From NCBI GenBank assembly GCA_042570545.1, contig JBHPGJ010000002.1, positions 31,741-95,740 of the forward strand: a stretch of 64,000 bases of DNA, read 5' to 3'. This DNA comes from Patescibacteria group bacterium (GTDB lineage Bacteria > Patescibacteriota > Patescibacteriia > JBHPGJ01). The notes under the pieces were generated by a model. That model was not told the origin of the DNA. It saw nothing but the letters and a program-made list of their open reading frames with translations, and did not search any database. This document shows positions 2 through 18,900 of this stretch, piece by piece; positions within the stretch are counted from its first letter, which is position 1, and every line of letters begins with the position of its first letter. Position numbers and translations under genes: made by a program.

Positions 2-3000
2 GCTAATACCATTACCACTAATGGTGATTTTAATAATGAGAATACTTTCTCTAATTCCGGCGGTACCTTAGTGATGAATGGTGCGGGAACGCTGACCTCA
101 AATGCTTCTACCCTTAACAACCTTACTATCTCCGGCGTTGTCACACTGGCGGCTGCCACCCATACAGTAGCTGGCAACCTAGACTTATCCAGTAGCACTA
201 TTACCGCCGCCGGCTCGACCGTGGTGATGACCGGTACTTCAAATACCGTCGTGGGCGGTGATCAAACTTTGGCCAATTTCCAGATAAACCCAGCATCACC
301 TGGCACCATAACCCTCCAAACATCAGATCTAACATCAACCGGAACGCTTAATGTCTTTGCTGATGATACACTTACAATAGACACAGGCAGAATTATGACG
401 GCAAATAATATGGCGCTCAATGGTACCATTGATGGCGCGGGACTTCTCGACTTCAACCAAAATTCCGCTTTTCCATCTACTGGCACGCTCGATGCCGATC
501 TGCGTTTGTCTGGCACTGGCGCCCAAACTTTACCCGACCGGACATATGGTGGCAATGTCGAGATTTATAATGACTCAGCATCACCAAGTCGGACGGTAAC
601 GCTTGCCAGTGGCTCGCCTGTATATTCTGGCAATTTCACAGTGAATGCCACCAATGCTAACGACATTATAGTCGATGGAGCAACCAATAGCCCGACCATG
701 GACATTACCGGCAGTATCAGCTTTCCCGGCGCCGGCGGCGGTACTGATACTATAACTACCGGTACCAATACCTGGTTCGTCGGTGGGAGCGCTGACTTTA
801 CCAACGGCACATTTACCCATACGGCTGACGGAACTTTGGATATGGACGGCTCGGGCACACTGACCACTGCTAGCAATAACATTAAGAACCTCACTCTCTC
901 TGGAACAATAATACTAGCGGCGGCTTCCCATACAGTAAGCGGCAACCTAGACATGTCCAGTGGAGCAGTAACCGCTACCGGTTCAACTGTATTTATGAAT
1001 GGAGTTACAAAAACCATCGATGGCGGCGGCAACACCTTAAATAATCTATGGTTTACGCCGGCCGGACCGACAGCATACACGCTACAAAACACTGACCTGA
1101 CAGTCGGAGGTACGCTTGATATTGGTGATTTTGCACAAGTTAATATTAATGTTAACCGCACCCTTACCCATTCAGGAACGTTGAATTTAAACAGTACCGG
1201 CGCGACTGGTGGAGCTGGCCGCTATACTTATCAGTCATCTACCGCTCTCCCCACCGGCGGCACCATTGGCTCAATTCTCAGAATGGATTCATCGAGTAAT
1301 GACCAAAGCATGAATGCCCGCACTATTGGCGGTGCCTTAGAGATCTATAATAATAGCGCTAGTATCAGGACGGTGACACTGAATGCCGGCACCCAAGACT
1401 TTAATAGTACGTTATCTCTCGAAGCGCCGAGCTCTGGCACTTTGAACCTGACCGGCTCAGGTACTAATCCTACTATCGATCTGGAAGGGGACCTATCTTG
1501 TGTGGCTGGGGGTGCAACCAAGACTATCACCACTGGTACCGGCACCTGGAATGTCGCTGGCCTTGTTACGCTTACCAACTGCACATTAAGCGCTACGGCT
1601 GGCAACACTTTCAATTTTGATAGCGATGACGCTGCCACGCTTACCTCAGCCAGCGAAACATTTGATAATGTCGATATTTCCGGCACACTTACTTTAGCCA
1701 ATGAAACGCATACCGTTAGCGGGGCACTTGATCTTACTGGCAGTACGTTAACCGAAGGCACATCGACAGTATTGATGACCGGCACAGCTAATCTTACCGG
1801 TGGTGGGGAGACGTTGAATGATCTCACGATCGACGGCACGACAAATACTGTCACCATGGCGACGTCTAACCTCACTGTTGGCGGTACGCTCAATGTCGCA
1901 TCGGGCGATACCTTAACCATTGGTGACGGTTTGACGCTGACCCATTCTGGAGCAACGCTAACGCTCGCGGGAACCATCAATGAGGGGGGCGCCACTACTG
2001 GATTACTGGTGTATCAGTCAACTACGGCATTTCCTACAACGGGGTCCATTACAGCGGACCTTCGCATGGATGGAGCATCCGGCAACCAGATTCTGGGCGC
2101 AAGAAATGGTGCTAATAACTTCGGTGGTGACGTCGAGATTTACAACAACTCAGGCGTAGCAAGGACATTTACTCTCGGTACGGCTGGCGCACAAACACTG
2201 GACGTTGCTGGTGCGCTCACCCTGACGGCGAGCTCGGGAACTATCGAGTTAAAAGGAGAGACGTGGGATCCGACACTGAACGTGACTGGTGCGCTCACCT
2301 GCGACGTCAGTGCTGCGACCGAGACCATCACTGCGCCAGATGCCGTCGCCACCTGGACGTTTTCTAATAATGTGAATTTAACGAACTGCACTTACACAAA
2401 GAGTGCAGAAACCTTGGTCATGGATACTACCGGCACCCTAACCTCAGCTTCCCAGACTTTAAATAATTTAACCTTATCCGGCGTAATAACTTTAGCAGGG
2501 GCTACCCATATTGTTTCCGGCAACCTGAACATGACCGATGGCACCATCACCGCTACCGGCTCTACTGTCTCCATGGGCGGCACCTCTAAGACCATCACTT
2601 CTGATGGCGATTCTCTAAATAACCTTACTGTTACTGGCGGCTCCATCAGCAACGCTGATGCCATGACCGTGGCTGGCAACTTCACTCTCTCGGCTGGTGA
2701 TTTCTCACAACATGCAACTGCCAATGTGACCATTACCGGTGACACTATTCTTATCTCTGACGGAGCTACCTTCACTAAATCCGGTACTAGTGGAACGTTA
2801 ATACTAGACGGTATCTCAGATAATCAAACCTACCAAGACTTAAGTTCTGGAGCCAAACAGAACCTAGGCTCTGTCCAGATCGGCGCCAGTCCTGGCACTA
2901 CCAAACTGAAAAGCGACTTTGCCGCCGATGACCTGACTATTGTTGACGGTGACAGACTAGAGACCCACGGCTGGGAAGTAGACTTAGTTAATTTCTTTGA

Positions 3001-4828
3001 CTGCCAAGGGGCATGTATTCTTGATCTGGTTGATGATCCACCAAGTCAAGAGAGTAACGGCACCATTATTACCTTTGGCACTGACTTTACGATGTCTGGA
3101 ACCGGCACGGTGATCGTCTCGGGCAACGATTCTAGAATTGAACCAGACGGCACGGTAGACCAGATCGTCACTACTGGCGGTAAGATCTATGACACCTTTT
3201 ATGTTAATAATACCGGTGCCACTGACGCCGTTGATGACGTCATCATCTCCGGTGCCCTTGATCTAACCACCGATCTAATAATAAACGATGGTGAGCTAGA
3301 CTTAGATGCCAATGATCCGGCTGTTACTATAGAAAAAGATATGACCATCAACTCCGGTGGCGATATATTGCCCTCAGATACAAATGGCATAACCTTTGAC
3401 GGTTCAGCTACGGCCGGTACCTACACTGACTCTAGCTCTGGTGGCCCATTAAACATCGGTGATGTCACAGTAAACAAATCCTCCGGCACTCCGGCCACTG
3501 ACACCGTTACTCTGGCTTCCAGCATGCTAGCCGATACGGTAGTGATTAGTGCCGCCGACACTCTCGACCTGGTCGATTCAGGCTTTACCCTAGAACTAGC
3601 TAATAATGCTGCTACCGGAACAGTACTAACCACTACCGGTACCTTAGATGTTGGAACTAACTCCTTAGTTAAATACTCAGCTATTAATACAGTTGGTCAA
3701 GTAACCGTAGATAACACCGGTTACCACGACATTCAGTTCTCCGGAGCCGAGATCTACGATCTGGGCGGCAACCTGACCACCACTGACGATATTGACGGTA
3801 ACCTGACCATTGATTCTGGCGCCACTCTAGATGTTACCGCTACTAACTACAACATCGATCTGGCCGGTAACTGGACCAACAACGGTGACTTTACTGACCG
3901 GGCTGGTACCGTAACCCTTGACGGAGCCGCTACCCAGACCATGTCCGGACAGATGACTGGTGCCAGTGATCAATTTTATAACTTAAATATTACTAATACC
4001 TCTGGCTCGGCCACTACTTGTGAAGGCGCCTTTACCCCTGGTGTAGACTTCGCGGCGGCTGCTCAAACGGCCAATACTATGGACATCAGTCCCGGACCTA
4101 ACTATGTCCAGTTTCAAGATAGTGCTACCTATACCTTCCAGAACATTGATTGGCAGGGGACGGCTGGCAATCTGGTTTACTTAAGGAATTCTAATTTGAC
4201 CGGCGGAAGCTGGACACTAACTGTAGCCGGCACCCAAGCAGTAACATACGTCAACGTGGCCCGATCAAATGCCACCAGCACCATCGATGCCACCCAGATC
4301 TACAACGAAGACTGTGGTAATACTACAAATTGGGATTTTGATTCTCTTCAGTTCAGTATTACTGATATCGATATAGGCTTTGGATCACTGAGCACTGGCA
4401 TATCCAGATTTGCCACTGGTAACGGTATCGGAGCTGATGGGCCTACGCCAACCAGCGCTCATGACCTGACTGTCCTGACCGGCGCAGAGGGCGGCTATGC
4501 TCTGACTTATTACAGTACCCAGACACTTACTAGCGGTTCTGATGACATTAATGCCGCCACCATAACAGGTGATGGTGACGGAGATCCAGGATCTGAGCAA
4601 TTTGCTATCAGCTTTGCTACTGACGGCGATGCTACTATAGCGGTTCCATATCGTCAGAGTAGCAGTAACTATAAATATGAAACTTCGAGCACGGTTTCCA
4701 TTGCCACGGAGTCAGGGCCAACAGCTCTGGAGACTATTAGTGCGTATTACCTTGGGAATATGTCTACAGTGACAGCCGCCGGCACTTATACTACGACTAT
4801 TATATATGTAACTACCGGTACGTTTTAA
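2..4828 (+). CDS. Giant repetitive surface/adhesin-like protein. It is N-terminally truncated by the window edge. The Thr/Gly/Asn-rich tandem repeats suggest a beta-helix.
   Basis: The frame is open from position 2 through the ORF-track ORF 71-4828, with no stop upstream. The translation shows about four tandem repeats of roughly 265 aa (for example 'TLTSASxTLNNLTLSGVITLAxATHxVSGNLD...'). The C-terminal ~150 aa are homologous to the C-terminus of the next gene. Confidence 0.75.
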   Translation, partial: ANTITTNGDFNNENTFSNSGGTLVMNGAGTLTSNASTLNNLTISGVVTLAAATHTVAGNLDLSSSTITAAGSTVVMTGTSNTVVGGDQTLANFQINPASPGTITLQTSDLTSTGTLNVFADDTLTIDTGRIMTANNMALNGTIDGAGLLDFNQNSAFPSTGTLDADLRLSGTGAQTLPDRTYGGNVEIYNDSASPSRTVTLASGSPVYSGNFTVNATNANDIIVDGATNSPTMDITGSISFPGAGGGTDTITTGTNTWFVGGSADFTNGTFTHTADGTLDMDGSGTLTTASNNIKNLTLSGTIILAAASHTVSGNLDMSSGAVTATGSTVFMNGVTKTIDGGGNTLNNLWFTPAGPTAYTLQNTDLTVGGTLDIGDFAQVNINVNRTLTHSGTLNLNSTGATGGAGRYTYQSSTALPTGGTIGSILRMDSSSNDQSMNARTIGGALEIYNNSASIRTVTLNAGTQDFNSTLSLEAPSSGTLNLTGSGTNPTIDLEGDLSCVAGGATKTITTGTGTWNVAGLVTLTNCTLSATAGNTFNFDSDDAATLTSASETFDNVDISGTLTLANETHTVSGALDLTGSTLTEGTSTVLMTGTANLTGGGETLNDLTIDGTTNTVTMATSNLTVGGTLNVASGDTLTIGDGLTLTHSGATLTLAGTINEGGATTGLLVYQSTTAFPTTGSITADLRMDGASGNQILGARNGANNFGGDVEIYNNSGVARTFTLGTAGAQTLDVAGALTLTASSGTIELKGETWDPTLNVTGALTCDVSAATETITAPDAVATWTFSNNVNLTNCTYTKSAETLVMDTTGTLTSASQTLNNLTLSGVITLAGATHIVSGNLNMTDGTITATGSTVSMGGTSKTITSDGDSLNNLTVTGGSISNADAMTVAGNFTLSAGDFSQHATANVTITGDTILISDGATFTKSGTSGTLILDGISDNQTYQDLSSGAKQNLGSVQIGASPGTTKLKSDFAADDLTIVDGDRLETHGWEVDLVNFFDCQGACILDLVDDPPSQESNGTIITFGTDFTMSGTGTVIVSGNDSRIEPDGTVDQIVTTGGKIYDTFYVNNTGATDAVDDVIISGALDLTTDLIINDGELDLDANDPAVTIEKDMTINSGGDILPSDTNGITFDGSATAGTYTDSSSGGPLNIGDVTVNKSSGTPATDTVTLASSMLADTVVISAADTLDLVDSGFTLELANNAATGTVLTTTGTLDVGTNSLVKYSAINTVGQVTVDNTGYHDIQFSGAEIYDLGGNLTTTDDIDGNLTIDSGATLDVTATNYNIDLAGNWTNNGDFTDRAGTVTLDGAATQTMSGQMTGASDQFYNLNITNTSGSATTCEGAFTPGVDFAAAAQTANTMDISPGPNYVQFQDSATYTFQNIDWQGTAGNLVYLRNSNLTGGSWTLTVAGTQAVTYVNVARSNATSTIDATQIYNEDCGNTTNWDFDSLQFSITDIDIGFGSLSTGISRFATGNGIGADGPTPTSAHDLTVLTGAEGGYALTYYSTQTLTSGSDDINAATITGDGDGDPGSEQFAISFATDGDATIAVPYRQSSSNYKYETSSTVSIATESGPTALETISAYYLGNMSTVTAAGTYTTTIIYVTTGTF
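83..3200 (+). repeat. Protein-level tandem repeats with a period of about 795 nt (about 265 aa), four copies. They are diverged at the DNA level.
   Basis: The recurrent motif block 'GTLTS(N/A)S.TLNNLT(I/L)SG...LA.A.H.V.GNL.' starts near residues 5, 253, 516 and 783 of the translated ORF. Confidence 0.5.
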
Positions 4829-4891
4829 TTAATGGATAAATGCATACCCAACTTTGACATATTATGATAAAGTTGCTATACTATAGGAAGA

Positions 4892-6034
4892 TTGAGGGAC
4901 GTCGAACCTCAAACCATGATAAAATCAACAAATAATAGAAATAATTTAATTATTACGAATATGATTAGAAAATTATCAACACCTTTATTAATAGCGGCCA
5001 TGTTGGCCTTTTTTGTGTTTCCGGTCAATACTACTCACGCGGCTAACCTGACCAGTCTTAAGGACGTGATGTCCATCTTGACTGACTCAGCTGAGGCAAA
5101 CCACACTATATCGTTTGTCGCCCCGTCTGCAGTAGCTAACAATACTTCCATGACTATTACGTTTGGCACTGGTTGGGATCTGTCTGACCCGATCGATGAA
5201 GACGATATTGACGTTGCTGGTAGCACTGAAGGTGAATTAACTACCGCGGCAGACTGCACTGGTGCGGAAAATGCCGGTGTTAGCGTAGCTGGTCAGGTCA
5301 TAACGATTGAGCTTTGCGACACTGATGGCGGTGATTTTACCGGCTCTGAAACGATTACTGTAGAGATCGGTCTTCATGCCACCTCTTCAGGATCCGGCGC
5401 AAACCAGATCACTAACCAGACTGTTGCCCAAAACAACACCGATCCAACTATTGTTGTTGCCACGGCTAGTGATAGCGGCACATTAGCAACAGAAATAATC
5501 ACTGATGGTGATGTCACTGTAACTGCCACCGTAGATCCGTCAGTAACTTTCTCCATAACTGATACGACAGTCGGTTTTGGTCCGCTTGATGCTGCCCAGG
5601 AATGTTGGGCCATGGGTACCGCACCGGCATCTTGTAACTCAACCAAGCAAACTGCCCACACCATGAGTGTGGGAACTAATGCTACTGGCGGTGTGAGTTT
5701 GACATATTCTGGTCCTTCTATGACCAGTGGTGGAGATACAATTAACGACGGTACTATGACCGATGCTGACGGCACTCCCGGTACGGAAGAGTTTGGCCTT
5801 GGTATAGACGATAACGCTGCCACCCTTACCATAACAGCGGCTTATGATGAGAACACCGATAATTATAAGTTCGACTCGGCTAGTGATACCACGCCAATTG
5901 AAATTGCCACCTCCGGTGGTAATCCGGTAACCAGCACCACTATGGATACACACTACATGGCCAACATCGCTGCTGATACTGAAGCCGGCAGCTATAGTAC
6001 CGATATCATCTACGTCGCCACCGGAACCTTCTAA
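4892..6034 (+). CDS. Secreted protein with an N-terminal signal peptide. Its C-terminal domain is shared with the upstream giant protein. The start may instead be the internal ATG near 4916.
   Basis: There is a hydrophobic signal-like segment 'LSTPLLIAAMLAFFVFPVNTTHA'. The C-terminus aligns with that of ORF 2-4828 ('SITD..GFG.L...AH..V.T.A.GG..LTY...TSG.D.IN...D.PG.E.F...NYK...IATS.G...AG.Y.T.IIYV.TGTF'). Confidence 0.7.
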   Translation: MRDVEPQTMIKSTNNRNNLIITNMIRKLSTPLLIAAMLAFFVFPVNTTHAANLTSLKDVMSILTDSAEANHTISFVAPSAVANNTSMTITFGTGWDLSDPIDEDDIDVAGSTEGELTTAADCTGAENAGVSVAGQVITIELCDTDGGDFTGSETITVEIGLHATSSGSGANQITNQTVAQNNTDPTIVVATASDSGTLATEIITDGDVTVTATVDPSVTFSITDTTVGFGPLDAAQECWAMGTAPASCNSTKQTAHTMSVGTNATGGVSLTYSGPSMTSGGDTINDGTMTDADGTPGTEEFGLGIDDNAATLTITAAYDENTDNYKFDSASDTTPIEIATSGGNPVTSTTMDTHYMANIAADTEAGSYSTDIIYVATGTF

Positions 6035-6086
6035 GACATAGTTACCAGAGAATTACCATAGAGGGTAGTCTTGCCTATATTAGTTA

Positions 6087-7097
6087 ATGCTTGAAAATTA
6101 TTACAAAAAAATGCTGAAATCATTAAATCGTTTATTGTTACTTAGCGCTTTGATGGTCGGCATTTTTTTTGTAGCCGAAAGTGCTCAGGCCCTAACCTTG
6201 ATCCCGCCCTCAACAGAAATAGGCGCCGTGCCAGGCCAGAAGATCGATGTTGAGATAAAATTGTTTAACGAAGAGCAAGTACCGAAGATCGTATTTTCTG
6301 ATGTGACCAACTTTACCGCCTCAGGTGAGACCGGCAGTCCGACCTATAGTTTTGATGCTGAGCCATTTGGTATTGCCACTTGGTTTGAGGTGCTTGAAGG
6401 TCCGCTGTCAATAGAGCCTGGCCAAAGAGTAACCATACCCGTAACAATAAACGTACCGGCCGATGCAGAACCGGGCGGTCATTATGCCGCTTTGTTCTTC
6501 GGCAGTGATCCAGATAAAGATAATAATAACGAGGCCCCCCAACTGGCTATCGGTCAAAAGTTGGGCACCCTATTCCTAGTACGGGTCGATGGTGACATTG
6601 TTGAAGGCGGCGCTATTGCCACCTTTGGTCTAGCCGAGGGCAAAAAGAAATTATCTCACTTACCGGCAACTTTTGAGGTTCGTTTTGGTAATACTGGCAA
6701 CGTCCATCTTAGACCGCAGGGGAGTGTAGTGGTGAAAAATATGTTTGGCGGACAAAGTGCTAACCTGGTAATCAATGAAAGCCGGGGCGCTACTTTGCCG
6801 GAAACAATAAGGAAGTATGAAACCATCTGGGAGAAAAATGCTGTCAACGAAGGCGGTTTCTTTACCCAGTTGGGTAATGAGTGGAAGAACTTTGCTTTTG
6901 GTAAATATACCGCTACGGTAAATCTTCAGTACGGTACGGAAAATCCTACTCAAACAAGCGATAGCTTCAGCTTCTGGGTGATCCCCTGGCGGTTAATAAT
7001 TACATTTATAGTCCTGCTGGCTGTCGTTGTACTGCTGCTGATTGTCTTTATTAAAAGATACAACGCTTGGGTTATAAAAAAAGCCCAAGGTCAATAA
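6087..7097 (+). CDS. Cell-surface protein with an N-terminal signal sequence and a C-terminal transmembrane anchor. It may be DUF916-like.
   Basis: N-terminal hydrophobic segment. The C-terminus 'WVIPWRLIITFIVLLAVVVLLLIVFIKRYN' is a TM helix followed by basic residues. The motif 'VPADAEPGGHYAALFF' resembles the DUF916 family; this is recalled from memory, not searched. Confidence 0.55.
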   Translation: MLENYYKKMLKSLNRLLLLSALMVGIFFVAESAQALTLIPPSTEIGAVPGQKIDVEIKLFNEEQVPKIVFSDVTNFTASGETGSPTYSFDAEPFGIATWFEVLEGPLSIEPGQRVTIPVTINVPADAEPGGHYAALFFGSDPDKDNNNEAPQLAIGQKLGTLFLVRVDGDIVEGGAIATFGLAEGKKKLSHLPATFEVRFGNTGNVHLRPQGSVVVKNMFGGQSANLVINESRGATLPETIRKYETIWEKNAVNEGGFFTQLGNEWKNFAFGKYTATVNLQYGTENPTQTSDSFSFWVIPWRLIITFIVLLAVVVLLLIVFIKRYNAWVIKKAQGQ

Positions 7098-7112: not shown

Positions 7113-7967
7113 GTGATTAAATTCCACTGGCGATGGATAAGTTATGCGATACTTCTCCCGGTGCTTGTTTTGGCACTTGGAGTTCATTTAGTATCGGCTA
7201 TTGATGTGTCGGTATCAGCCACTGTGCCGAGTGATCCACCAATCATCCCTGATACCATAGTTCAATTTAGCGGCTATGCTTATCCCGGAGCTGATATTAC
7301 CATCAGGCAAAATGGTTCAGTGCTGGCCACTACGGTTGCCAATCCACAAGCAAATTTTAATGTGTCTAAAAAAATAAATCCCGGTACTTATACTTTCGCT
7401 ATATTTGGCGAGGATGACAATGGCTTAACGGGACGGGTCTTTAATATTACCCTAAGTATCACCGAAGGAGCGACAACAACCATAAGCGGCATATTCTTAG
7501 GACCAACCATCGATGCTGATAAAAGCACGATTGAAATTGGCGAAACAATTACCATTTTGGGTACCACCGTGCCCAATAGCACGGTGCTGATCACGGTAAA
7601 TTCAAATGCCCAAATTTCCTCACTAGTAACGGCCTTAAATGACGGTAGCTACTCTGATCAATTTATTGGCGGTCTAGGTGGTCTGGATATTGATACCCAC
7701 TCAGCTCGGTCCAAGGCCACGGCTCCGGATAATTCCATATCAGAAAATAGCAATACCATCTCCTTTGCCGTAGTTGATCAGGATGTTTGCGCTACGGCCT
7801 CGCCCGGTGATATAAACTGTGATGGCTTTGTAAACTTGGTTGATTTTAGTATTTTCTTGTTCTATTGGGGCTCAACTAATCCGGCCGAACCACGAGCTGA
7901 TATTAATAATGACGGCCGAGTTGATATCATCGACTTTAGTGTCATGTTGTTCTACTGGACGGGATAA
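7113..7967 (+). CDS. Secreted protein carrying a C-terminal type-I dockerin-like module (a duplicated Ca-binding segment).
   Basis: N-terminal signal/TM segment. The C-terminus reads 'GDINCDGFVNLVDFSIFLFYW...ADINNDGRVDIIDFSVMLFYW', two 'DxNxDGxVNxxD' loops each followed by a hydrophobic helix. Confidence 0.75.
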   Translation: MIKFHWRWISYAILLPVLVLALGVHLVSAIDVSVSATVPSDPPIIPDTIVQFSGYAYPGADITIRQNGSVLATTVANPQANFNVSKKINPGTYTFAIFGEDDNGLTGRVFNITLSITEGATTTISGIFLGPTIDADKSTIEIGETITILGTTVPNSTVLITVNSNAQISSLVTALNDGSYSDQFIGGLGGLDIDTHSARSKATAPDNSISENSNTISFAVVDQDVCATASPGDINCDGFVNLVDFSIFLFYWGSTNPAEPRADINNDGRVDIIDFSVMLFYWTG

Positions 7968-7971
7968 ATAT

Positions 7972-9096
7972 ATGAAGAAATTTATTTGGCCATTATCATT
8001 AACACTACTTATAACTGGATTTGTATTGGCGGCAAAACCAGCCACTGCCGCTCGAGTCTTTGCCTATCCAGCAGAGATGGAAGCGGCCATCAATGAGACT
8101 TTTGTGATTGATATTCGGCTTGATAGCGAACAGGAAATAATTAATGCTGTCCAAGCCCAAATTAATTTCCCAGCTGACTTATTGGAAGTGGTGGATGTTG
8201 ACCGGGGCAACTCCTTTTTAGAATTATGGGTGGAAGAACCGCAGATAGACAATAAGACCGGCCAAGTTAGTTTTGTCGGCGGCATACCTCAGGGTAGCTA
8301 TGTGGTTGAAGGCAACCTGCTGACCTTAACTTTTAGGGTGAAATCAGCCGGCTCGGCTATTGTTAGTTTTAATGGGCAAAATACCAGTGTACATCTAAAT
8401 GATCCTTTAGGCACCGCCGCAGAGATAAGTTTTGAGAATGGATTATATGCTTTGGGTAATCCAATGGCCTTGAATATTGTGATCAATTCCTCAACCCATC
8501 CGGACGAAGATCAGTGGTATCAGAATAATTTTGTAGAGTTTGATTGGAATACCAGAGAAGAAGCCGCTTATAGCTATACATTATCTATTAATCCCACCGC
8601 CGAACCTGATGAGACTTTTGATACCAATGAGGGTCAAGCCAGTTTTGAAGAAGTAAATGATGGTACACATTACTTTATATTAAAAGAAATATTACCGGGT
8701 GATGACTGGGAATTAGTTGGTCGTCGTCGGGTAAAGATTGATAAAACCCCGCCGCTGCCGATTACTACTAACTTTGGACAACACCAAAATATCGCTGAGG
8801 GAAAAATATTTCTAGCTTTTTCAACCACTGATGTCGGTTCAGGTGTAGATCGATATGAATTGACTGAGGGTGATGATATATATACTGATGTTACCAGTCC
8901 GTATGTTTTGGCCGATCAAAACAGAACCAGCGATATTGTCATTAAAGTCATAGATAAAGCCGGTAATATCAGGACTACTACCTTGCCGGCTCAGAATCAA
9001 ACCACTAAACAAGCACTACCGTTATGGGTTATAATTGTTATTGCGGTAATTGCCGTGGTCGCTATAACTACTTATATACTTAAAAAATCTAAATAA
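7972..9096 (+). CDS. Membrane-anchored protein with an N-terminal cohesin-like module and a C-terminal TM anchor.
   Basis: The start was moved to the ATG at 7972 (MKKFIWPLSLTLLITGFVLAAKPATAA, a signal peptide), because the ORF-track start at 7840 overlaps the upstream gene. The ~130-aa N-terminal region has a cohesin-like alternating hydrophobic/Gly pattern. The C-terminus 'LPLWVIIVIAVIAVVAITTYILKKSK' is a TM anchor. It is a paralog of the next gene. Confidence 0.7.
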   Translation: MKKFIWPLSLTLLITGFVLAAKPATAARVFAYPAEMEAAINETFVIDIRLDSEQEIINAVQAQINFPADLLEVVDVDRGNSFLELWVEEPQIDNKTGQVSFVGGIPQGSYVVEGNLLTLTFRVKSAGSAIVSFNGQNTSVHLNDPLGTAAEISFENGLYALGNPMALNIVINSSTHPDEDQWYQNNFVEFDWNTREEAAYSYTLSINPTAEPDETFDTNEGQASFEEVNDGTHYFILKEILPGDDWELVGRRRVKIDKTPPLPITTNFGQHQNIAEGKIFLAFSTTDVGSGVDRYELTEGDDIYTDVTSPYVLADQNRTSDIVIKVIDKAGNIRTTTLPAQNQTTKQALPLWVIIVIAVIAVVAITTYILKKSK

Positions 9097-9101
9097 CCAT
9101 T

Positions 9102-10385
9102 TTGATGATTCGTCGCGCTATTATTATTGCCAGTCTAATAATCTTGGTTATACCATTATTTCCCCGTCCAGCTCTGGCTGCGGGTTCGATGTTTTTAGCG
9201 CCTAATTCCGGTAATTTTTCACCCGGCTCGACTATAACTATGAGTGTGGTGATCGGTACCGGCGGCCAGGCCATTAATTCAGCTCAAGCAACGATTGCTT
9301 ATTCGGATGATACTTTGGATTTACTAAGCGTTTCCCGCGGTGGTTCGATATTTACCCTCTGGCCGGTAGAGCCTAGCGGCGGTGGTGGACAGATAACATT
9401 TGCCGGCGGCTTGCCTACGCCCGGATACAACGGCAACGGTGGTTTAATCATATCAGCCACTTTTCGGGCGGCTGCTTTAGGCACGGCTACGGCTAGAGTG
9501 ACCAGTGGACAGTTATTATTAAATGACGGCTCAGGTACAAATATTCTAACCGGTTTTGGAGCTGCTACCTGGTCGATAACCGAAACGCCTGAACCGCCAC
9601 CCCCGACTGAAGTTATTGAGCGTTTACCAGCACCCGAGGTAAGTTCGGAAACGCATCCCAATCAAGATACTTGGTATAATGAGGAACTGATAAAATTGAA
9701 ATGGAATAAATTAGAAGGGGCGCTTGATTTTAGCTATGTGTACGATGATCAAGAAGGCACTACTCCAGATGATAATCCAGAGGGCAGTGATAGTAGCATC
9801 GAAATAAAAGATACCAGTGATGGTATTGCTTATTTTCACATCAAGGTCAGAAATGAAGGTGGCTGGAGCGATACGGCTCACTTTAGAGTAAAAATTGACA
9901 CCACACCGCCTAAAAAATTTACTATTAGACTTGAGGGAGAGAATCCAACCGGCATATTGAGACCCTATATACATTTTAGGACAACTGATGCACATTCAGG
10001 CATTAAAACCTACCAGGTATATATAGATGGAAACAAAGGTACAACGGTTAAATCAGGAAAAACCACCCCCTACCGTTTAAGTGAACTGAGTCTGGGTGAG
10101 CATGAAATCCAAGTAGAAGCCACCGATAATGCTGAAAATAGCCGATCAGCAAAATTAATGATTACGGTTGTCGATCGTGGCGATGATGGCGGGGTACAAT
10201 ATATAACCAAATATGTAGGCGAAGGCTCAATTTTCCGACAATTTGTATTTTGGTTAATGTGGATATTATTACTGCTGCTGTTAATAATAATCATGTTCTT
10301 TATCTTGTGGAAACGGAAAAAGAAGAAAGAAGACGACGAAAAATACCGGGGTATTCCCAGTAATTATAGCCAACCAAAAAGTTAA
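9102..10385 (+). CDS. Membrane-anchored cohesin-like domain protein; a paralog of 7972-9096.
   Basis: Signal peptide, then the cohesin-like block 'GSTITMSVVIGTGGQAINSAQATIAYSDDTLDLLSVSRGGSIFTLWPVEP...GLIISATFRAAALGTATARV'. The shared middle motifs are 'HPNQDTWY' and 'TTDAHSGIKTY'. The C-terminal TM 'FVFWLMWILLLLLLIIIMFFILW' is followed by KRKKKKE. Confidence 0.7.
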   Translation: MMIRRAIIIASLIILVIPLFPRPALAAGSMFLAPNSGNFSPGSTITMSVVIGTGGQAINSAQATIAYSDDTLDLLSVSRGGSIFTLWPVEPSGGGGQITFAGGLPTPGYNGNGGLIISATFRAAALGTATARVTSGQLLLNDGSGTNILTGFGAATWSITETPEPPPPTEVIERLPAPEVSSETHPNQDTWYNEELIKLKWNKLEGALDFSYVYDDQEGTTPDDNPEGSDSSIEIKDTSDGIAYFHIKVRNEGGWSDTAHFRVKIDTTPPKKFTIRLEGENPTGILRPYIHFRTTDAHSGIKTYQVYIDGNKGTTVKSGKTTPYRLSELSLGEHEIQVEATDNAENSRSAKLMITVVDRGDDGGVQYITKYVGEGSIFRQFVFWLMWILLLLLLIIIMFFILWKRKKKKEDDEKYRGIPSNYSQPKS

Positions 10386-10386
10386 T

Positions 10387-11358
10387 CTAATCTAATGTTT
10401 GCGGTGGGTATATTTCTGGCTGATTTTTTATTATTACCTTAATAACGGCTTTCTGTTTTCTTAGAGAATCTTTTTTATCTGTGATCGGCGTAGTAAAATA
10501 CCTTTTTAACAGACCGATATAAGTAAGGCCGTATATAACCCAGAGCAAGCCGATAAATGATATCTTACTGGCCCAATAGTCTCCTGACTGGCCAAATTTT
10601 TTATAGTATCTAAACAGTGACGAATAATATTCCTGCTTGGTCCAATAAGGATCAAGCCGGGTGGTGCTTTGTCCCCTAAGGTGAACTATATCAGTGGTCG
10701 GAACCAAATAAATATTTTTTTGTTTATTAATTATCCGCCTGGCCAGATCAACATCATTGAAAAATATGGGGAAATTCTCATCTAACAATCCTCTGATTTC
10801 ATCAATAACCGACCTTCTAAGCATCAGACAAGTGCAGGCCGCCTGCTCAATTATTTTTTCCTGATCAAACTTGTCTTTTATCATCAGGAACTTCTTCGCT
10901 GATGGAGTAGTGATCTTGGCAAAATGATGTAGGCCAGAGGCTAGCATTCGCATTACAGTCGGTAGTTGCCGGTGGTAACCGTATTGGATACTGCCATCAC
11001 TATTTAGAAATCGGCAGGTTACTCCGGCAGCTGATGAATTTCGATCTAAATAACCGCTTAGCTCGGTCAAGGTGTTTTTCTCTAAAATCACATCGTCATT
11101 AAGCATCAATACATAATCACCTGTGGCCTGTGCGTAGCCCTGGTTATTGCCGGCGGCGAAGCCGATATTATTTTTATTGATAGTTAATAACGCATTTGGG
11201 AATTCTTCTTGAATAAGTTTTACTGTGTTGTCCGAGGAAGCGTTGTCGATGATAATTAATTCAAAACCATCGGCAAAATCAGATCGACTGATCGACTGCA
11301 GACATTCTTTAATACGCCCCTCGCTGTTCCAGGTGACAATGATTATTGAAATTTTCAT
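10387..11358 (-). CDS. Glycosyltransferase family 2.
   Basis: N-terminus 'KISIIIVTWNSEGRIKECLQSI...LIIIDNASSDNT' is a GT2 signature; a DxD-like motif is also present. Confidence 0.8.
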   Translation of the reverse strand: MKISIIIVTWNSEGRIKECLQSISRSDFADGFELIIIDNASSDNTVKLIQEEFPNALLTINKNNIGFAAGNNQGYAQATGDYVLMLNDDVILEKNTLTELSGYLDRNSSAAGVTCRFLNSDGSIQYGYHRQLPTVMRMLASGLHHFAKITTPSAKKFLMIKDKFDQEKIIEQAACTCLMLRRSVIDEIRGLLDENFPIFFNDVDLARRIINKQKNIYLVPTTDIVHLRGQSTTRLDPYWTKQEYYSSLFRYYKKFGQSGDYWASKISFIGLLWVIYGLTYIGLLKRYFTTPITDKKDSLRKQKAVIKVIIKNQPEIYPPQTLD

Positions 11359-12422
11359 TCTGGCGGTTGTATGGCATCAAGAAAGCGATTAGCTGTTTTA
11401 TGCCAGTCAAAATGTTTGGCAAAGTGACCAGCCTTATGACCCATAAGCTTTCTCAGATTCTTAAATTTAATAAGTTTTAACATAGCGGCTGCTAAATCAT
11501 GAGGCCGAGCAGTTACGCACAGGCCGGTTTGATCGTGTTCAATTGATTCGGCCAGCCCCGGCAGGTTATAGACGATAGACGGTGTCTTATAATTAGCAGC
11601 GTCGTATATAGGCGCATTCCAGCCGCGACTAGGAGCAGTTGATATTATGGCCCAGGCTCGTTGATACTGTTCGGCCAGTTGAGCTGGACTTAATTTGCTA
11701 TACCAACGGATGTTGTTGTTTATCCCTAACTGAGCAGCTTGGGTTACAATTTTTTGTCTGTATGTTGGCCCCTCGTTGTTTATTACCCACAACGTTGACG
11801 TCGGGTATTGGGGCAGCGTCTGGGTAAAGGCATCTAAAATATCCTCAAAATTATTTTCGGCCTTAAGTGAGCCGTGATACAACCAAGTTGGATTTACAGT
11901 CTTGGGGACATTAACCTGATCAACATTAGTAACCAATCCGGGGGGTAATATATAAAGACGCCCAAAATCAGATGAATTTAGTTGATCGTAGATATGTGGA
12001 GAGGTTGTGAAAACCAAATCATGACGATGGGGCTTGAGTTGTTTGTTTGTTATCTGCTTGTCAAGTGAGGATTTAGCATTATATTTTTGATGCACAAATA
12101 TAATTCGAGAATTTGCCGGAACATAAGAAGAGGTGGCGAATGACTTATGGTTTACGGTCTCGGCCACATAATCGGTAGTACCTGAGGCTTTATCGTTCCA
12201 AAATTGTCGAGCTTGACTACTGATATTATTTTCACCACCGCGGCGAATATAAGTAATACCGTTTTGGGCCGATATATCATGACCTTGGTGGTGCTGGCTG
12301 GACAAACAAGTTACTTGATGCCCACGGGCAGCAATTTTCTCAGCTAAGGCGGCAACAAAATGCTCTGGCTCGCCAGCTAATGGATGACTGGTATCTCTGA
12401 TATTTAAAAATAAGAAATTCAT
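11355..12422 (-). CDS. Glycosyltransferase group 1 (GT4-like).
   Basis: Rossmann-like N-terminus 'FLFLNI...AALAEKIAARGHQVTCLS' and a C-terminal GT1-like region. Its stop overlaps the next gene's start, so the two are likely co-transcribed. Confidence 0.7.
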   Translation of the reverse strand: MNFLFLNIRDTSHPLAGEPEHFVAALAEKIAARGHQVTCLSSQHHQGHDISAQNGITYIRRGGENNISSQARQFWNDKASGTTDYVAETVNHKSFATSSYVPANSRIIFVHQKYNAKSSLDKQITNKQLKPHRHDLVFTTSPHIYDQLNSSDFGRLYILPPGLVTNVDQVNVPKTVNPTWLYHGSLKAENNFEDILDAFTQTLPQYPTSTLWVINNEGPTYRQKIVTQAAQLGINNNIRWYSKLSPAQLAEQYQRAWAIISTAPSRGWNAPIYDAANYKTPSIVYNLPGLAESIEHDQTGLCVTARPHDLAAAMLKLIKFKNLRKLMGHKAGHFAKHFDWHKTANRFLDAIQPPE

Positions 12423-12692: not shown

Positions 12693-13358
12693 ATGGAAAA
12701 ATCAAGTACTAATTCAGATAAAAAAAGTCCTAAAGCAAAACCGGGATACAAATCCCAAGCTCGACTTACCAAACCAGAAGAAATAGCCCCGCCCTTTAAA
12801 ACTTCAGTGCGTGATTTTGTTATCGAAGTAGTTAAGGTCGTGGTGATCGCGCTGGCCATCATAATCCCAGTCCGTTATTTTCTGGTCCAGCCTTTTTATG
12901 TCAAGGGAGCGTCAATGGAGCCAAATTTTCAGGATCATGAATATTTGATAATTGATGAGATTAGTTATCGTTTTCGCGAACCAAATCGCGGCGAAGTGAT
13001 TGTAGTTAGAAATCCTCAACAGCGTAAAGAATTTTTTATAAAACGAATAGTTGGACTGCCGGGTGAGACAGTGGAAATTACAAATGATCGTATAAAAATT
13101 TCATCAGATCTCTACCCCACAGGTATAATCATAGATGAGTCTAGTTATTTGCCGGAAAATATAATAACCAAAGGTAACTTAGTAACCGTACTGGGGGACA
13201 CGGAATATTTTATCATGGGTGATAATCGCAACGCCAGTCTTGATTCCCGCATTTTTGGACCAGTAAACGATAGGGATATTATTGGCCGAGCCTGGCTAAG
13301 AGCCTGGCCAATAACCGAATGGCGCAGTTTTTCATCACCAGTTTATAATTATCCCTAA
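12693..13358 (+). CDS. lepB: Signal peptidase I.
   Basis: N-terminal TM segment; the motifs 'GASMEPNF', 'IKRIVGLPGETVEI' and 'YFIMGDNRNASLDSR' are S26-family boxes. Confidence 0.85.
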   Translation: MEKSSTNSDKKSPKAKPGYKSQARLTKPEEIAPPFKTSVRDFVIEVVKVVVIALAIIIPVRYFLVQPFYVKGASMEPNFQDHEYLIIDEISYRFREPNRGEVIVVRNPQQRKEFFIKRIVGLPGETVEITNDRIKISSDLYPTGIIIDESSYLPENIITKGNLVTVLGDTEYFIMGDNRNASLDSRIFGPVNDRDIIGRAWLRAWPITEWRSFSSPVYNYP

Positions 13359-15506: not shown

Positions 15507-15977
15507 ATGTCACTAAAAGATAGAATCGAGGCTGATTATCGTAAAGCCTTTAAAAGTAAACAGACCGAAGTCATGTCAGCTTTGCGCCTGCTTAAAGCAG
15601 CTGTAAAAAATGCGGAAATCGCGAAACGTAAAGATTTTGAAGATGATGAAGTAGAAAAGGTAATTAACCAAGAGGCTAAAAAAGTAAGGGATAGTATCGA
15701 AGCTTACCAACAGGGAAATCGTCAAGATCTGGTCAAGCAAGAAGAAGCTCAACTTAAGGTAATGGAAGACTATCTGCCCGAGCAGTTAAGCCCGGAAGAG
15801 TTAAAGGATATTGTTCACGACGTAATAAATCGATTACAAGCTAGTCGGCCCCAGGATATGGGACGAGTGATGAAAGAGATAATGTCTGTCACCGAGGGAC
15901 AAGCTGACGGTAAGCAAGTAAAAGAACTGGTCCAATCATTTCTAACATCAAATCAGGATAATTCTCAAAACCCATGA
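15507..15977 (+). CDS. GatB/YqeY-domain protein.
   Basis: Matches the YqeY family pattern 'LKDRIEADYRKAFKSKQ...LRLLKAAVKN...LKVMEDYLPEQLSPEEL'. This is the conserved rpsU-yqeY neighbourhood. Confidence 0.8.
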   Translation: MSLKDRIEADYRKAFKSKQTEVMSALRLLKAAVKNAEIAKRKDFEDDEVEKVINQEAKKVRDSIEAYQQGNRQDLVKQEEAQLKVMEDYLPEQLSPEELKDIVHDVINRLQASRPQDMGRVMKEIMSVTEGQADGKQVKELVQSFLTSNQDNSQNP

Positions 15978-18900
15978 GTAAAAGGCGCAAGTCTAACAAG
16001 ACCAACGTCTTAGTTATTATCGCTGCCCTAACCGCTGCAGTTTCAGTTGGTGGATTTTTTAGTCTGGTAAGCGTATCGGCTCAAACCTCATTTTCAATTG
16101 AAGATATTGGCAGCTCGATTGGTCTAGGCTCGGCTGACCTCAAAGATGTAGTTATAAATGTAATTAAGTGGGCGCTGGGTATACTAGCCCTAGCGGCGGT
16201 GGCCATAATGATCTACGGCGGTTTTCTATGGATTACAGCTCGGGGCCGGGAAGAACAAATTGAAAAAGCCAAGAAAGTAATCATTGGCGCCCTGATCGGC
16301 GTGGTCATTGTATTGCTATCGTGGGCAATTGTACTGTTTGTGGAGCGGTTTATATCAGGCAGTACCCAGACGGGGGGTACGGTTTGTACACCGGGCGACC
16401 AGATACCGCCAATACCCGCGACTGCTTGTTTTGTCTGTAATGCCACTGGTACGTCCTGGGTGCCGACAGGTGATCCAGCGTGTATACCAGGTCCGTCAGT
16501 ATTTACTTTGACTGACGTTGAGACTTCTAATAATGGCGATGCTACCGATGTACATCTTTGCAGTAATGCCAACAGTATCTTTAATCATAGACTTAATGCT
16601 CAAACGATCCTTGATGCTGATACCCTGGGCGATCTGGGGATTTATGAAAATCCCAACACACCCGGTGAGATTGAAGTGCTCGGATCTTTCATACCGCTAA
16701 CTAACTCAGCTACTTGGAAACACCAGCTGCATTGTTCAAATGATCGTACTCAATCATGCAATAATGATGCTGATTGTGGCGGTGCGCCAAATACTTGTGA
16801 CAAATTATTTGCAGCCAACACTGACTATGAAGCGCGATTTCCCCAAAGTATAGAAAATTTTTCAGGTGATTTTCTCCAAGCCTGTAGTGCCTTACCCGGC
16901 TGCAGCTTTAATAATATTACTAATAATTTTGAATTTGACTTTCACGTCGGCGTTACCACCGATATAGTGGAACCAACCATTGTCTCGGCTGATCCTATGC
17001 TGCCAGGCAATCCCGGCTACCCCGACCGCACCATTTCTCGATATCCGATCATTGATGTAAGTTTTAATGAACCGATTGATATGACGACGGTAGCTGCTCT
17101 TGATGTGATGGGAGTGGCCCGGCCAATACCGGCTAATGTAAAAATTGAACAATGGGATAATGATCCAGACGCTGGTGGTGCTTATGTGGTCGATGTCGAT
17201 CCAAATATAATTCAAGTTCAGGCCAAGCCGCAAGGCTTTAAACTAAGTTTAGATGGCGGTCATCTATTAGAACCCTTTACCTGGTATAAGATTATTGTTG
17301 ATAATGTTGAGGACCTGTGCGGCAACAGTATGGTAGCCCAAGTTGATTGGAATTTCCAAACTACCGATGCCGTACCCGGTGTGGTTGGTGTTTATCCGCC
17401 GGCTGGCAGCTCAAATGTTTGTCCTGATACTAAAATAGTAGTTACTTTTGGCACCACGATGTTTAATAGCGATGTCACTTTTCAGGTAACTGGAGGGTCA
17501 GTCCCTATAGTGATTACTCTGCCAGCAGCGTCAACAATGTTTCCCGGTCCTTATACTTGGACTGATGGAGGCGGCAATACGATTAGAGTAGTTGATCCAG
17601 GGCCAACGGCTGATAACAATTTCCGGGTTTATGAAGTTACGCCCGGTGTGCCGTTAGATATTAATACTACCTATGACGTGGCAATAACTACTACCCTCCA
17701 AATTGATGTTAACGGCACTACCTTAAGTCATAACTGGCAGTTTGCTACTTCTACACCCGAACTATGTGCTTGCACGCCGTTTGTGGCCACTGTTCAGCCC
17801 AATCAGGGCCCGCGTGGTATGTGTGTATCAATAGTTGGCGAGTGTTTTGACGGCACCGCAGCTCATCCGGCAACGGTTAGCAACGTGGAATTTGACGTCG
17901 ATTATGGCAATCCACCTCCACCAGCCCCTTGGACCTCGGGTGAAGTTACATACAATATTTTATTACCGGATATTATCGGTACCAGTATACCGCTGATAAA
18001 TACCAACGATGGCAATAATCCAATATTCTTTAACGGTGACTGGCCGCGAGCCCGGGTTACTATAGCTTATGCCGACCCTGCATATGGATCGCATAGCTCT
18101 GATCCGGCCACTAATTCCTTCTTTGTCAATTCAGATAATCTGGCTGACGGGCCGTGCTTATTCTCACTAAATCCTGGTGCCGGTATTGCCGGTACCACAG
18201 TTAATGCTAAGGGTATTAGATTTGGTGATCCGCCCCCAGCACAAACAACGGCTGAAATTCACTTTGAGGATGGCTCCGGCGGAGCCAACGCCGGCTGGCT
18301 GCCCGGCGGCTGGTCACAGACCGATATACTAACAAGCGTTCCCGGTTGGGCCATAGATGGCGATGTCTTTGTCCGTAACGACGCCGGTGATTCTAATAAA
18401 ATTTACTTTGATGTCATACCGCCGGCCCCAACAAGTCCAATGGTACTGGGACATTGGCCAATTTGTGCCTCAGCCTGCCTGAATGCCGGTATGGGCGCTG
18501 ATTTTAATCTAAATGTTGAAATGGATCCGACCACGATAGATGGCAATACTATCAACGTCTGGAAATGTACTGATGGACCGACATGTAATGTTTTTGATCC
18601 GATACCAGTAGCCATAACCGTGCCGTCATATGTTTTCAATCCAATAATTCCTATGAACCGGGCTGAGTGGTTTGGTCAAAACGACTTTGATCCTATTGAG
18701 TATTATCGAGTGATTATGAGTAATGGTATTTTAGCTCTGAGCGACGGCACGCCGATCACCAATCTAAATTACGATGATCCAAATAACGCCATCAACGGTC
18801 TGGATAGCTTCAGCTGGATATTCCAAACCGGCGCCTCAGCTTGTGATATAGATACTATTAATACACTGCCTGATGCAGTTACCATGACCTTTGCCAATCA

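Follow-up and report, generated by a model that had tools for sequence, protein, structure and literature searches.

We analysed a 64,000-nt stretch of DNA (hereafter, the window) from a Patescibacteria group bacterium of the candidate phyla radiation (CPR; GenBank assembly GCA_042570545.1, contig JBHPGJ010000002.1, positions 31,741 to 95,740 of the forward strand). The window begins with an operon of six genes, which encode a giant repeat protein, a small secreted protein ending in the same C-terminal domain, a membrane protein with two immunoglobulin (Ig)-like domains, a secreted dockerin protein and two membrane proteins of the cohesin type. The operon probably specifies a Pam-type pilus built by donor-strand exchange, with the giant protein as tip adhesin, the small protein as shaft pilin and the dockerin and cohesin modules as the tether to the cell. 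The features of the operon are as follows:

2..4828, + strand: giant repeat protein rich in Thr, Gly, Ser and Asn, proposed tip adhesin; frame open from position 2
4343..4825, + strand: acceptor domain of the Pam-pilin type at the C-terminus of the giant protein
4961..6034, + strand: shaft pilin of 357 amino acids (annotated ATG; ACFL04_00530), with signal peptide, beta-sandwich, linker and C-terminal domain
5504..5539, + strand: linker DGDVTVTATVDP of the pilin, proposed donor strand
5540..6031, + strand: acceptor domain (Pam-pilin) at the C-terminus of the shaft pilin; strands of the model at residues 195-355
6111..7097, + strand: two-Ig protein with signal peptide and C-terminal transmembrane helix, proposed pilus chaperone (PamC/D-like, WxLIP-like)
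7113..7967, + strand: secreted dockerin protein, proposed donor-only terminator and anchor adaptor
7972..9096, + strand: type I membrane protein with signal peptide, cohesin (nt ~8080-8379), Ig-like domains and C-terminal transmembrane helix
9102..10385, + strand: second membrane protein, with a cohesin-like N-terminal domain, a Big_13-type domain (E 1.3e-4) and a C-terminal transmembrane helix

A C-terminal domain common to the giant protein and the pilin

The C-termini of the giant open reading frame (ORF) and of the following one, which spans 380 amino acids when read from TTG 4892 (4892-6034), aligned colinearly to the last residue of each, both terminating in ...TGTF-stop, with 69 identities in 168 positions (41%) and 59% positives (BLASTP, E 5e-29). 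The original prediction, made from the letters of the window, had described such a colinear C-terminal block of ~150 amino acids on proteins with unrelated N-terminal parts, and both points were confirmed. The ends that it gave for the block were also right, whereas the true starts lie 7-8 codons upstream of those proposed, at SLQFSITD (nt 4343) in the giant protein and at SVTFSITD (nt 5540) in the pilin, with domain lengths of 161 and 164 amino acids, respectively. These two were the only copies in the window when a hidden Markov model (HMM) of the domain was run against its six-frame translation.

The domain had been taken as possibly undescribed, but it is already defined as the C-terminal domain of Pam pilins (NF058581 "CPR_Pam_pilin_C, Pam pilus system pilin subunit", NCBIfam release 20; bioRxiv 10.64898/2026.03.03.709456). 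Pam pili are known from Ca. Mycosynbacter amalyticus, a parasite belonging to the Saccharimonadia, whose PamA and PamB filaments were solved by cryo-electron microscopy (PDB 25PZ and 25QA), and their domain is a truncated Ig-like fold that accepts a donor strand from the neighbouring subunit (bioRxiv 10.64898/2026.03.03.709456). The small protein of the window scored 71.8-72 bits against NF058581 (357- and 380-amino acid versions), over the curated cut-off of 55 bits, and the model matched all of the 55 homologues of the pilin that were sampled (best E 8e-25). The last 199 residues of the giant protein, searched alone, gave 46.5 bits (E 3.9e-12), and the protein is linked to the family through its domain, which is 41% identical to that of the pilin. 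Pfam contained no match to the shared domain when all six operon proteins were scanned, and the 55 pilin homologues gave only scattered weak Ig-like matches, and none to WxL, at E <= 1. Searches of PDB sequences with the pilin, with the domain profile and with the single protein of 6111-7097 returned nothing meaningful.

In an exhaustive profile search over 1.84 billion representative proteins, clusters (50% identity) carrying the domain numbered 1,185 at E <= 1e-3 and 525 at the stricter limit of E <= 1e-10; the proteins concerned had about 190 to 3,574 amino acids and one copy each. In 266 of the 268 proteins analysed locally, no more than two residues separated the end of the domain from the C-terminus; the end ...ATGTF was invariant in the family, and no hydrophobic tail was present. 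The earlier description of a portable C-terminal module on otherwise unrelated secreted proteins was thus borne out, and the domain is neither confined to the two proteins of the window nor an internal repeat. Its strict C-terminal position is explained by a fold that lacks its last strand, the groove being filled by the beta-strand donated by the next subunit. The domain is most likely an incomplete, folded Ig-like strand acceptor, i.e., a polymerisation or docking module, and not a sorting signal read by an enzyme.

Properties of the pilin, the giant protein and their neighbours

The pilin is identical to ACFL04_00530 of NCBI ("Patescibacteria group bacterium"), and 306 full-length homologues of 340-390 amino acids were found. 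All of the 120 homologues listed were annotated as "hypothetical", and their named sources were Patescibacteria, CPR candidate lineages (such as Kerfeldbacteria or Nomurabacteria) or plain "bacterium". An AlphaFold2 model of the pilin built on 55 homologues (mean predicted local distance difference test score, pLDDT, 86) had two beta-domains behind the signal peptide, at residues 28-176 and 195-355 (pLDDT mostly above 90 in the second), with an unpaired segment of lower confidence between them at 181-194 (pLDDT 73). The predicted structure thus has the two-domain build with an inter-domain linker of Pam-type pilins. No part of the family was more conserved than this linker, DGDVTVTATVDP in the window (consensus DDSVNVTATVDP); of 186 two-domain pilins (300-420 amino acids), 174 had the motif DDSVxVTATVDP immediately upstream of the domain, and a position-specific scoring matrix (PSSM) built from 164 pilin linkers placed the site at nt 5504-5539 at the top of the whole window. 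In the Pam structures it is the inter-domain linker that is donated (bioRxiv 10.64898/2026.03.03.709456). The mature N-terminus of the pilin (ANLTSLKD...) was also considered as donor strand and was rejected, since in the model it is a confidently packed part of the N-terminal domain and Pam uses the linker. Judged by its sequence, the small protein is most likely a fibre subunit (Pam-type pilin); it does share its C-terminal module with the giant protein, as the original prediction had it, but the part of a mere second cargo does not fit.

The order giant, pilin(s), chaperone(s), dockerin protein and cohesin/transmembrane protein(s) recurred in four independent loci, L001, L003 (complete genome CP060230), L006 and L007 (CP060223), with pilins 42-60% identical to that of the window and operon proteins 40-60% identical. 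Each of them had as carriers of the domain one giant and one to three proteins of ~360 amino acids. The giants at this position ranged from 2,540 to 6,592 amino acids in the four loci and reached 7,020 in a fifth one, L008; the two largest values (L006:1-9854 and L008:1-8722) are annotated lengths, and both proteins exceed the locus that was fetched. Three tandem pilins were present in L007 (7735-11071) and two chaperones in L006 (309 and 333 amino acids), the system therefore varying in its paralogues as PamA/B/E and PamC/D do.

The giant ORF of the window runs off its 5' edge and has its stop at 4826-4828, the encoded protein being at least 1,608 amino acids long. Its N-terminal part had no Pfam or NCBIfam match; Thr made up 18% of the residues, and the motif THxV[SA]G[NA]L appeared three times, at residues 53, 569, and 835 (spacings of 516 and 266 amino acids). 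Such Thr/Gly/Ser/Asn-rich repeats are typical of fibrous adhesins, and we propose a location at the tip. The domain of the giant protein was not preceded by the linker motif of the pilins, TNWDFDS standing in its place, and matched the domain HMM only from position 4 on. Among the large carriers (over 420 amino acids), 48 of 55 lacked profile positions 1-2, i.e., the start of the linker motif, and many, mainly giants, had an N..CW.F-type motif where the linker would stand. The giants thus apparently offer no donor strand besides their acceptor domain, which is the signature of a tip subunit; in chaperone-usher pili, FimH and PapG are acceptor-only tip subunits.

The protein encoded at 6111-7097 was modelled by AlphaFold2 with a pLDDT of 92.5 as two beta-sandwiches followed by a helix (residues 293-325). 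Its best Foldseek matches in the PDB were two entries of Enterococcus faecium WxLIP, 9i25_C ("WxLIP from Enterococcus faecium locus A bound to long WxL") and 9i1y (E 6e-10); next came CsuC, CfaA, and DraB, all of them pilus chaperones (E 5e-8 to 1e-6), and RbmA. Pfam PF06030 (WxLIP_PGBD, formerly DUF916) matched 24 of 55 homologues of this protein (best E 1.5e-7); the protein itself had no PF06030 match, and PF11797 (DUF3324) was not detected. Searched against PDB sequences, the family profile found EfmWxLIP1 alone, weakly (E 0.07). The Pam operon encodes PapD/FimC-like chaperones, PamC and PamD, with a C-terminal membrane helix (bioRxiv 10.64898/2026.03.03.709456), and this is also the build predicted by the model of the 6111-7097 protein. 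The fold matches and the PF06030 kinship therefore suggest a protein that corresponds to PamC/D and is at the same time a relative of the WxLIP of Firmicutes.

Behind its signal peptide, the product of 7113-7967 has at the mature N-terminus the segment IDVSVSATVPS (nt 7197-7232) and then a Pro-rich linker, two Ig-like Big_6 domains (Pfam, 31.8 bits) and a type I dockerin at the C-terminus (nt ~7803-7946; Pfam Dockerin_1 33.4 bits, cut-off 22.9). A donor-like motif was present at its N-terminus in all five loci (the window, L001, L003, L006, and L007), the orthologues reading IDISVTATVPS (L001), DVVSISATVGA (L003), QVTVTATVPE (L006), and TLSVSAVVEA (L007). With the PSSM of the pilin linkers, this N-terminus ranked third among 44,787 six-frame positions in the window, fourth among 24,696 in L001, second among 17,358 in L003, and second among 18,447 in L006. 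The following protein, at 7972-9096, contained a Pfam Cohesin domain (32.6 bits, cut-off 24.1). The one at 9102-10385 had no such match itself, and the L001 proteins at the same position had Cohesin matches. The C-terminal transmembrane helices of both are visible in the sequence.

In the Pam system, PamT is a small tip subunit with an acceptor domain and no linker, and PamR a terminator anchored in the membrane, with an N-terminal strand that it inserts (bioRxiv 10.64898/2026.03.03.709456). No single protein of the PamR type (N-terminal strand, two fibronectin type III domains, C-terminal transmembrane helix) was found in the operon, the PamT model NF058579 (equivalog, cut-off 240 bits) gave only weak partial matches of ~21 bits, and the dockerin and cohesin proteins had no match among the Pam-specific models. 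On the simplest reading, the dockerin protein would be the functional counterpart of PamR, tethered through a dockerin-cohesin contact instead of a membrane helix of its own.

Proposed assembly and alternative explanations

Direct support exists for the identity of the domain, its distribution and C-terminal position, the class-specific motifs, the chaperone-like fold with its relatives, and the gene order; from these we infer that this lineage uses donor-strand exchange, how its subunits are ordered and that dockerin and cohesin form the tether. All operon proteins would be exported by Sec, and the two-Ig membrane protein would cap the open groove of newly exported subunits, like PapD-like chaperones and WxLIP. 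Because it has an acceptor domain and no linker motif, the giant protein would only accept a strand and would be placed at the distal tip as an adhesin analogous to FimH/PapG or PamT. The pilin of 357 amino acids, provided with both a donor linker and an acceptor domain, would polymerise head-to-tail into the shaft. The dockerin protein, which has a donor-like N-terminal strand and no acceptor domain, would donate this strand to the last pilin and end the fibre, and its dockerin would bind the cohesin modules of the two membrane-anchored proteins, the pilus being tethered to the cell in this manner.

Several points weigh against this assembly. The published filaments come from a species of Saccharimonadia and not from this lineage, and the likeness to Pam is one of sequence profile and predicted fold. 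Foldseek with the whole pilin retrieved only generic two-Ig adhesins from the PDB (ClfA, SdrG, Cna), an uninformative result with a template modelling score of ~0.2, and neither the 6111-7097 protein nor its family matched any NCBIfam Pam model. The tail of the giant protein stayed under the cut-off of NF058581, and the full-length protein had no NCBIfam match at all (E <= 0.1). The motif of the dockerin protein is short, and in L007 it is degenerate and outside the top six PSSM sites; in the window it is outranked by a chance-level match, VDQVNVPKTVNP (11889-11924, - strand), inside an unrelated cytoplasmic ORF of the minus strand (11355-12422), and the 12-residue motif alone is therefore weak evidence. 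As to the silence of NF058581 on the full 1,608 residues of the giant protein, it presumably reflects the correction for composition and bias on Thr/Gly-rich repeats; automatic annotation will therefore overlook giant pilus-linked adhesins.

A different arrangement is offered by the WxL clusters of Firmicutes (Lactobacillales/Bacillales), which comprise a small and a large WxL protein, a WxLIP (DUF916-DUF3324-transmembrane) and a small LPXTG protein, and in which the WxL domain is predicted by AlphaFold to take up a hairpin strand of WxLIP (Hassan et al. 2023, PMC10599100); PDB 9I25 holds a WxLIP-WxL complex. The comparison with WxL had been made in the original prediction and was apt, given that the neighbour of the pilin is a WxLIP relative at the family level and that the architecture, with at least two proteins sharing a C-terminal domain next to a WxLIP, follows the same three-gene logic. 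The products of the operon could then form a non-polymeric complex with no fibre, in which a diverged WxL domain (Tyr for Trp) would bind the wall non-covalently, with a WxLIP-like protein as stabiliser, and the small and giant proteins would be a wall-bound platform presenting the binding region of the latter. We consider this unlikely. In its favour are the pairing of a small and a large protein with a common C-terminal domain of ~160 amino acids beside a protein of the DUF916/DUF3324/transmembrane kind, the PF06030 matches in nearly half of the neighbour's homologues, the top PDB fold matches to EfmWxLIP1, including its complex with a WxL domain, and a comparison of profiles that used genuine loci from Enterococcus, Bacillus, Listeria, Lactococcus, and Melissococcus as controls. 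With hhalign, the domain against a narrow WxL alignment gave no significant result (E 0.48); when 262 CPR domains were set against 14 diverse WxL domains, 127 columns aligned colinearly with a score of 22.3 (P 0.009, probability 4.5%), which was higher than with any of 100 column-shuffled profiles (10.7 ± 1.7), with any of 100 block-shuffled ones (15.6 ± 1.5, maximum 21.2) and with the profile in reverse (14.9). Over the runs with broader profiles, P ranged from 0.009 to 0.02, the probability was just 2-5% and 127-150 columns were colinear. The motifs GY.IT and AGsYsT.ITYiATG of the CPR domain aligned with GW.VT and aGtFta.LTW.L.aGP of WxL, the Trp-x-Leu positions of the latter corresponding to GY.IT and ITYIA. 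This is suggestive of a kinship at the profile level, but both Trp-x-Leu motifs are missing from the CPR domain and none of 55 members of the pilin family matched PF13731 (WxL) at E <= 1, and membership of the WxL family is therefore not claimed. Moreover, the small protein has a conserved second domain and a linker, as the solved Pam pilins have, and NCBIfam classes it as a Pam pilin. The two explanations are perhaps compatible, as WxL clusters may themselves be donor-strand assemblies.

The proteins of the WxL clusters also presented a strand-like motif, (S/T)xGxIxF, right after the signal peptide, in 7 of the 8 small WxL proteins printed (one of three in L009) and in 4 of the 4 small LPXTG proteins (L005:309-989, 2118-2462; L009:2204-4609; L010:3932-4645; L011:5565-6723; L012:3908-4624; L014:3374-4630). 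It was followed by a Pro-rich or low-complexity linker, as in SKGDITFTEPTN, SSGTITFYDLSPVP, and SDGKVVFEPDTTP, and looks like an N-terminal donor strand. The WxL clusters mirror in this respect the arrangement proposed for the CPR operon, with a donor-only anchor, a small protein that is donor plus acceptor, and a large protein that is acceptor only. Pam pilus and WxL/Csc clusters may go back to one ancient chaperone-assisted donor-strand system without usher in bacteria with a single membrane, here a complete, modular adhesion organelle, a proposal that we put forward tentatively and with less than even confidence; if true, WxL clusters would also be strand-exchange assemblies. Literature searches on a link between WxL and pili, or on dockerin/cohesin in CPR pili, turned up nothing relevant.

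The original prediction had seen in the domain a surface-anchoring or sorting module. The assignment of both proteins to a surface structure stands, whereas a signal addressed to an enzyme is unlikely, as the domain has no sorting motif or hydrophobic tail and no sorting enzyme was found among the ORFs scanned. A strict C-terminal sorting signal of the LPXTG, type IX secretion system (T9SS) C-terminal domain or PEP-CTERM type, read and perhaps removed by a sorting enzyme, would agree with the strictly C-terminal position on many unrelated secreted proteins and with the invariant ...ATGTF end, but we judge it very improbable. The domain is a folded beta-domain of ~165 amino acids with high model confidence and not a short motif with a hydrophobic tail; it has no LPXTG-like motif, whose absence had been noted before, and no C-terminal transmembrane segment, and no sorting-domain or S-layer homology (SLH) model of Pfam or NCBIfam matched it. 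Pfam scans of the six operon ORFs and eight other large ORFs revealed no sortase, exosortase, rhombosortase or PorU-type gene, the nearest protease being an ordinary signal peptidase I, and a truncated Ig fold without its last strand accounts for the C-terminal position. Alternatively, two adjacent genes might share the domain because a structural repeat was duplicated locally, without any modular role; this is already refuted by the broad distribution of the domain, always single-copy and terminal, and it also disagrees with the pairing of a giant and a small protein that is kept across loci just 40-60% identical.

As regards the surroundings of the operon, two ORFs of the minus strand (10387-12422), glycosyltransferase-like by their translation, lie between it and a signal peptidase I gene (12693-13358, + strand; Peptidase_S26, E 2e-43) located 2.3 kb downstream of the operon. 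Glycosyltransferase-like ORFs beside a pilus operon deserve attention because PamA bears a post-translational modification on Ser (bioRxiv 10.64898/2026.03.03.709456). Further downstream (15974-22276, + strand), a protein of 2,100 amino acids, flanked by small ORFs, that matches Pfam T4SS_pilin at its N-terminus (E 4e-8) and contains Big_5 domains (E 1e-23) is probably part of a CPR type IV secretion or conjugation-like surface apparatus.

Comparison with known systems

A life in attachment to host cells is assumed for CPR bacteria, and the operon gives a concrete and testable picture of this attachment, in which a giant adhesin of several thousand residues on a fibre of one pilin is an obvious candidate for host recognition. 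The closest known system is that of the Pam pili, which the operon resembles in its C-terminal domain family (with the pilin over the cut-off), the two-domain pilin with inter-domain linker, the CPR host, the proposed acceptor-only tip subunit, the PapD-like chaperone with a C-terminal transmembrane helix, the proposed terminator with an N-terminal strand, and the lack of an usher or envelope-spanning machine. It differs in the tip, here a giant repeat protein (at least 1,608 amino acids; 2,540-7,020 in relatives) in contrast with the 241-amino acid, single-domain PamT; in having one shaft pilin and one chaperone as compared to three and two in Pam; and in a terminator with a dockerin instead of a transmembrane helix, the anchoring falling to separate cohesin-transmembrane proteins. 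No ATP-synthase genes were present among the eight large ORFs scanned. Furthermore, the named close relatives among the homologues listed were Kerfeldbacteria, Nomurabacteria or plain "Patescibacteria group", whereas the pilins in the published tree are mostly from Saccharimonadia and Microgenomatia (bioRxiv 10.64898/2026.03.03.709456). That preprint makes no mention of giant adhesins, dockerin/cohesin, WxL or DUF916. The domain and the pilin family were thus known (2026); what would be new is the giant acceptor-only adhesin, the dockerin/cohesin tether in the place of PamR, and the link to WxL. As to annotation, the pilin is named by the current NCBIfam models, whereas neither the giant adhesin nor the chaperone-like protein is picked up by them.

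The chaperone-usher pili of Gram-negative bacteria are made up of two-domain tip adhesins (FimH/PapG), rods (FimA/PapA), chaperones (PapD/FimC/CsuC/CfaA) and terminators (FimI/PapH). The operon would share with them donor-strand exchange, an acceptor-only tip adhesin, a shaft subunit that is donor plus acceptor and a dedicated terminator, as well as the two-Ig fold of the chaperone. In contrast, the CPR system has no outer membrane or usher (no usher-type Pfam match was obtained with any operon protein), its chaperone is membrane-tethered, its donor strand is inter-domain and not an N-terminal extension, its pilin has two domains, and no sequence similarity is detectable.

With the cellulosomes of Clostridia the operon has in common a secreted type I dockerin with two Ca-binding repeats and cohesins on cell-bound proteins encoded adjacently. 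It contains no enzymes or carbohydrate-binding scaffoldin, however, the pair being proposed to tether the base of a pilus, and a transmembrane helix, instead of SLH or sortase, anchors its cohesin proteins. The tether, if true, would be a new mode of pilus anchoring and a new biological use of the dockerin/cohesin pair.

The mechanism of the WxL clusters has been a puzzle for about twenty years. Like them, the operon encodes a small and a large secreted protein sharing a C-terminal domain, a small anchored protein, and an adjacent two-Ig membrane protein of the kind that in WxL clusters inserts a strand into the domain; the closest solved-structure relative of the CPR neighbour is WxLIP, and its family matches PF06030. 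Unlike them, the CPR domain has neither Trp-x-Leu nor PF13731, its profile similarity being merely suggestive; the CPR small protein has an extra N-terminal domain; anchoring would be by dockerin-cohesin and not by LPXTG; and WxL domains have been described as peptidoglycan binders, not as pilus subunits. The kinship of the chaperone-like protein to WxLIP nevertheless connects a new CPR pilus family to the surface clusters of enterococci, listeriae, and lactobacilli.

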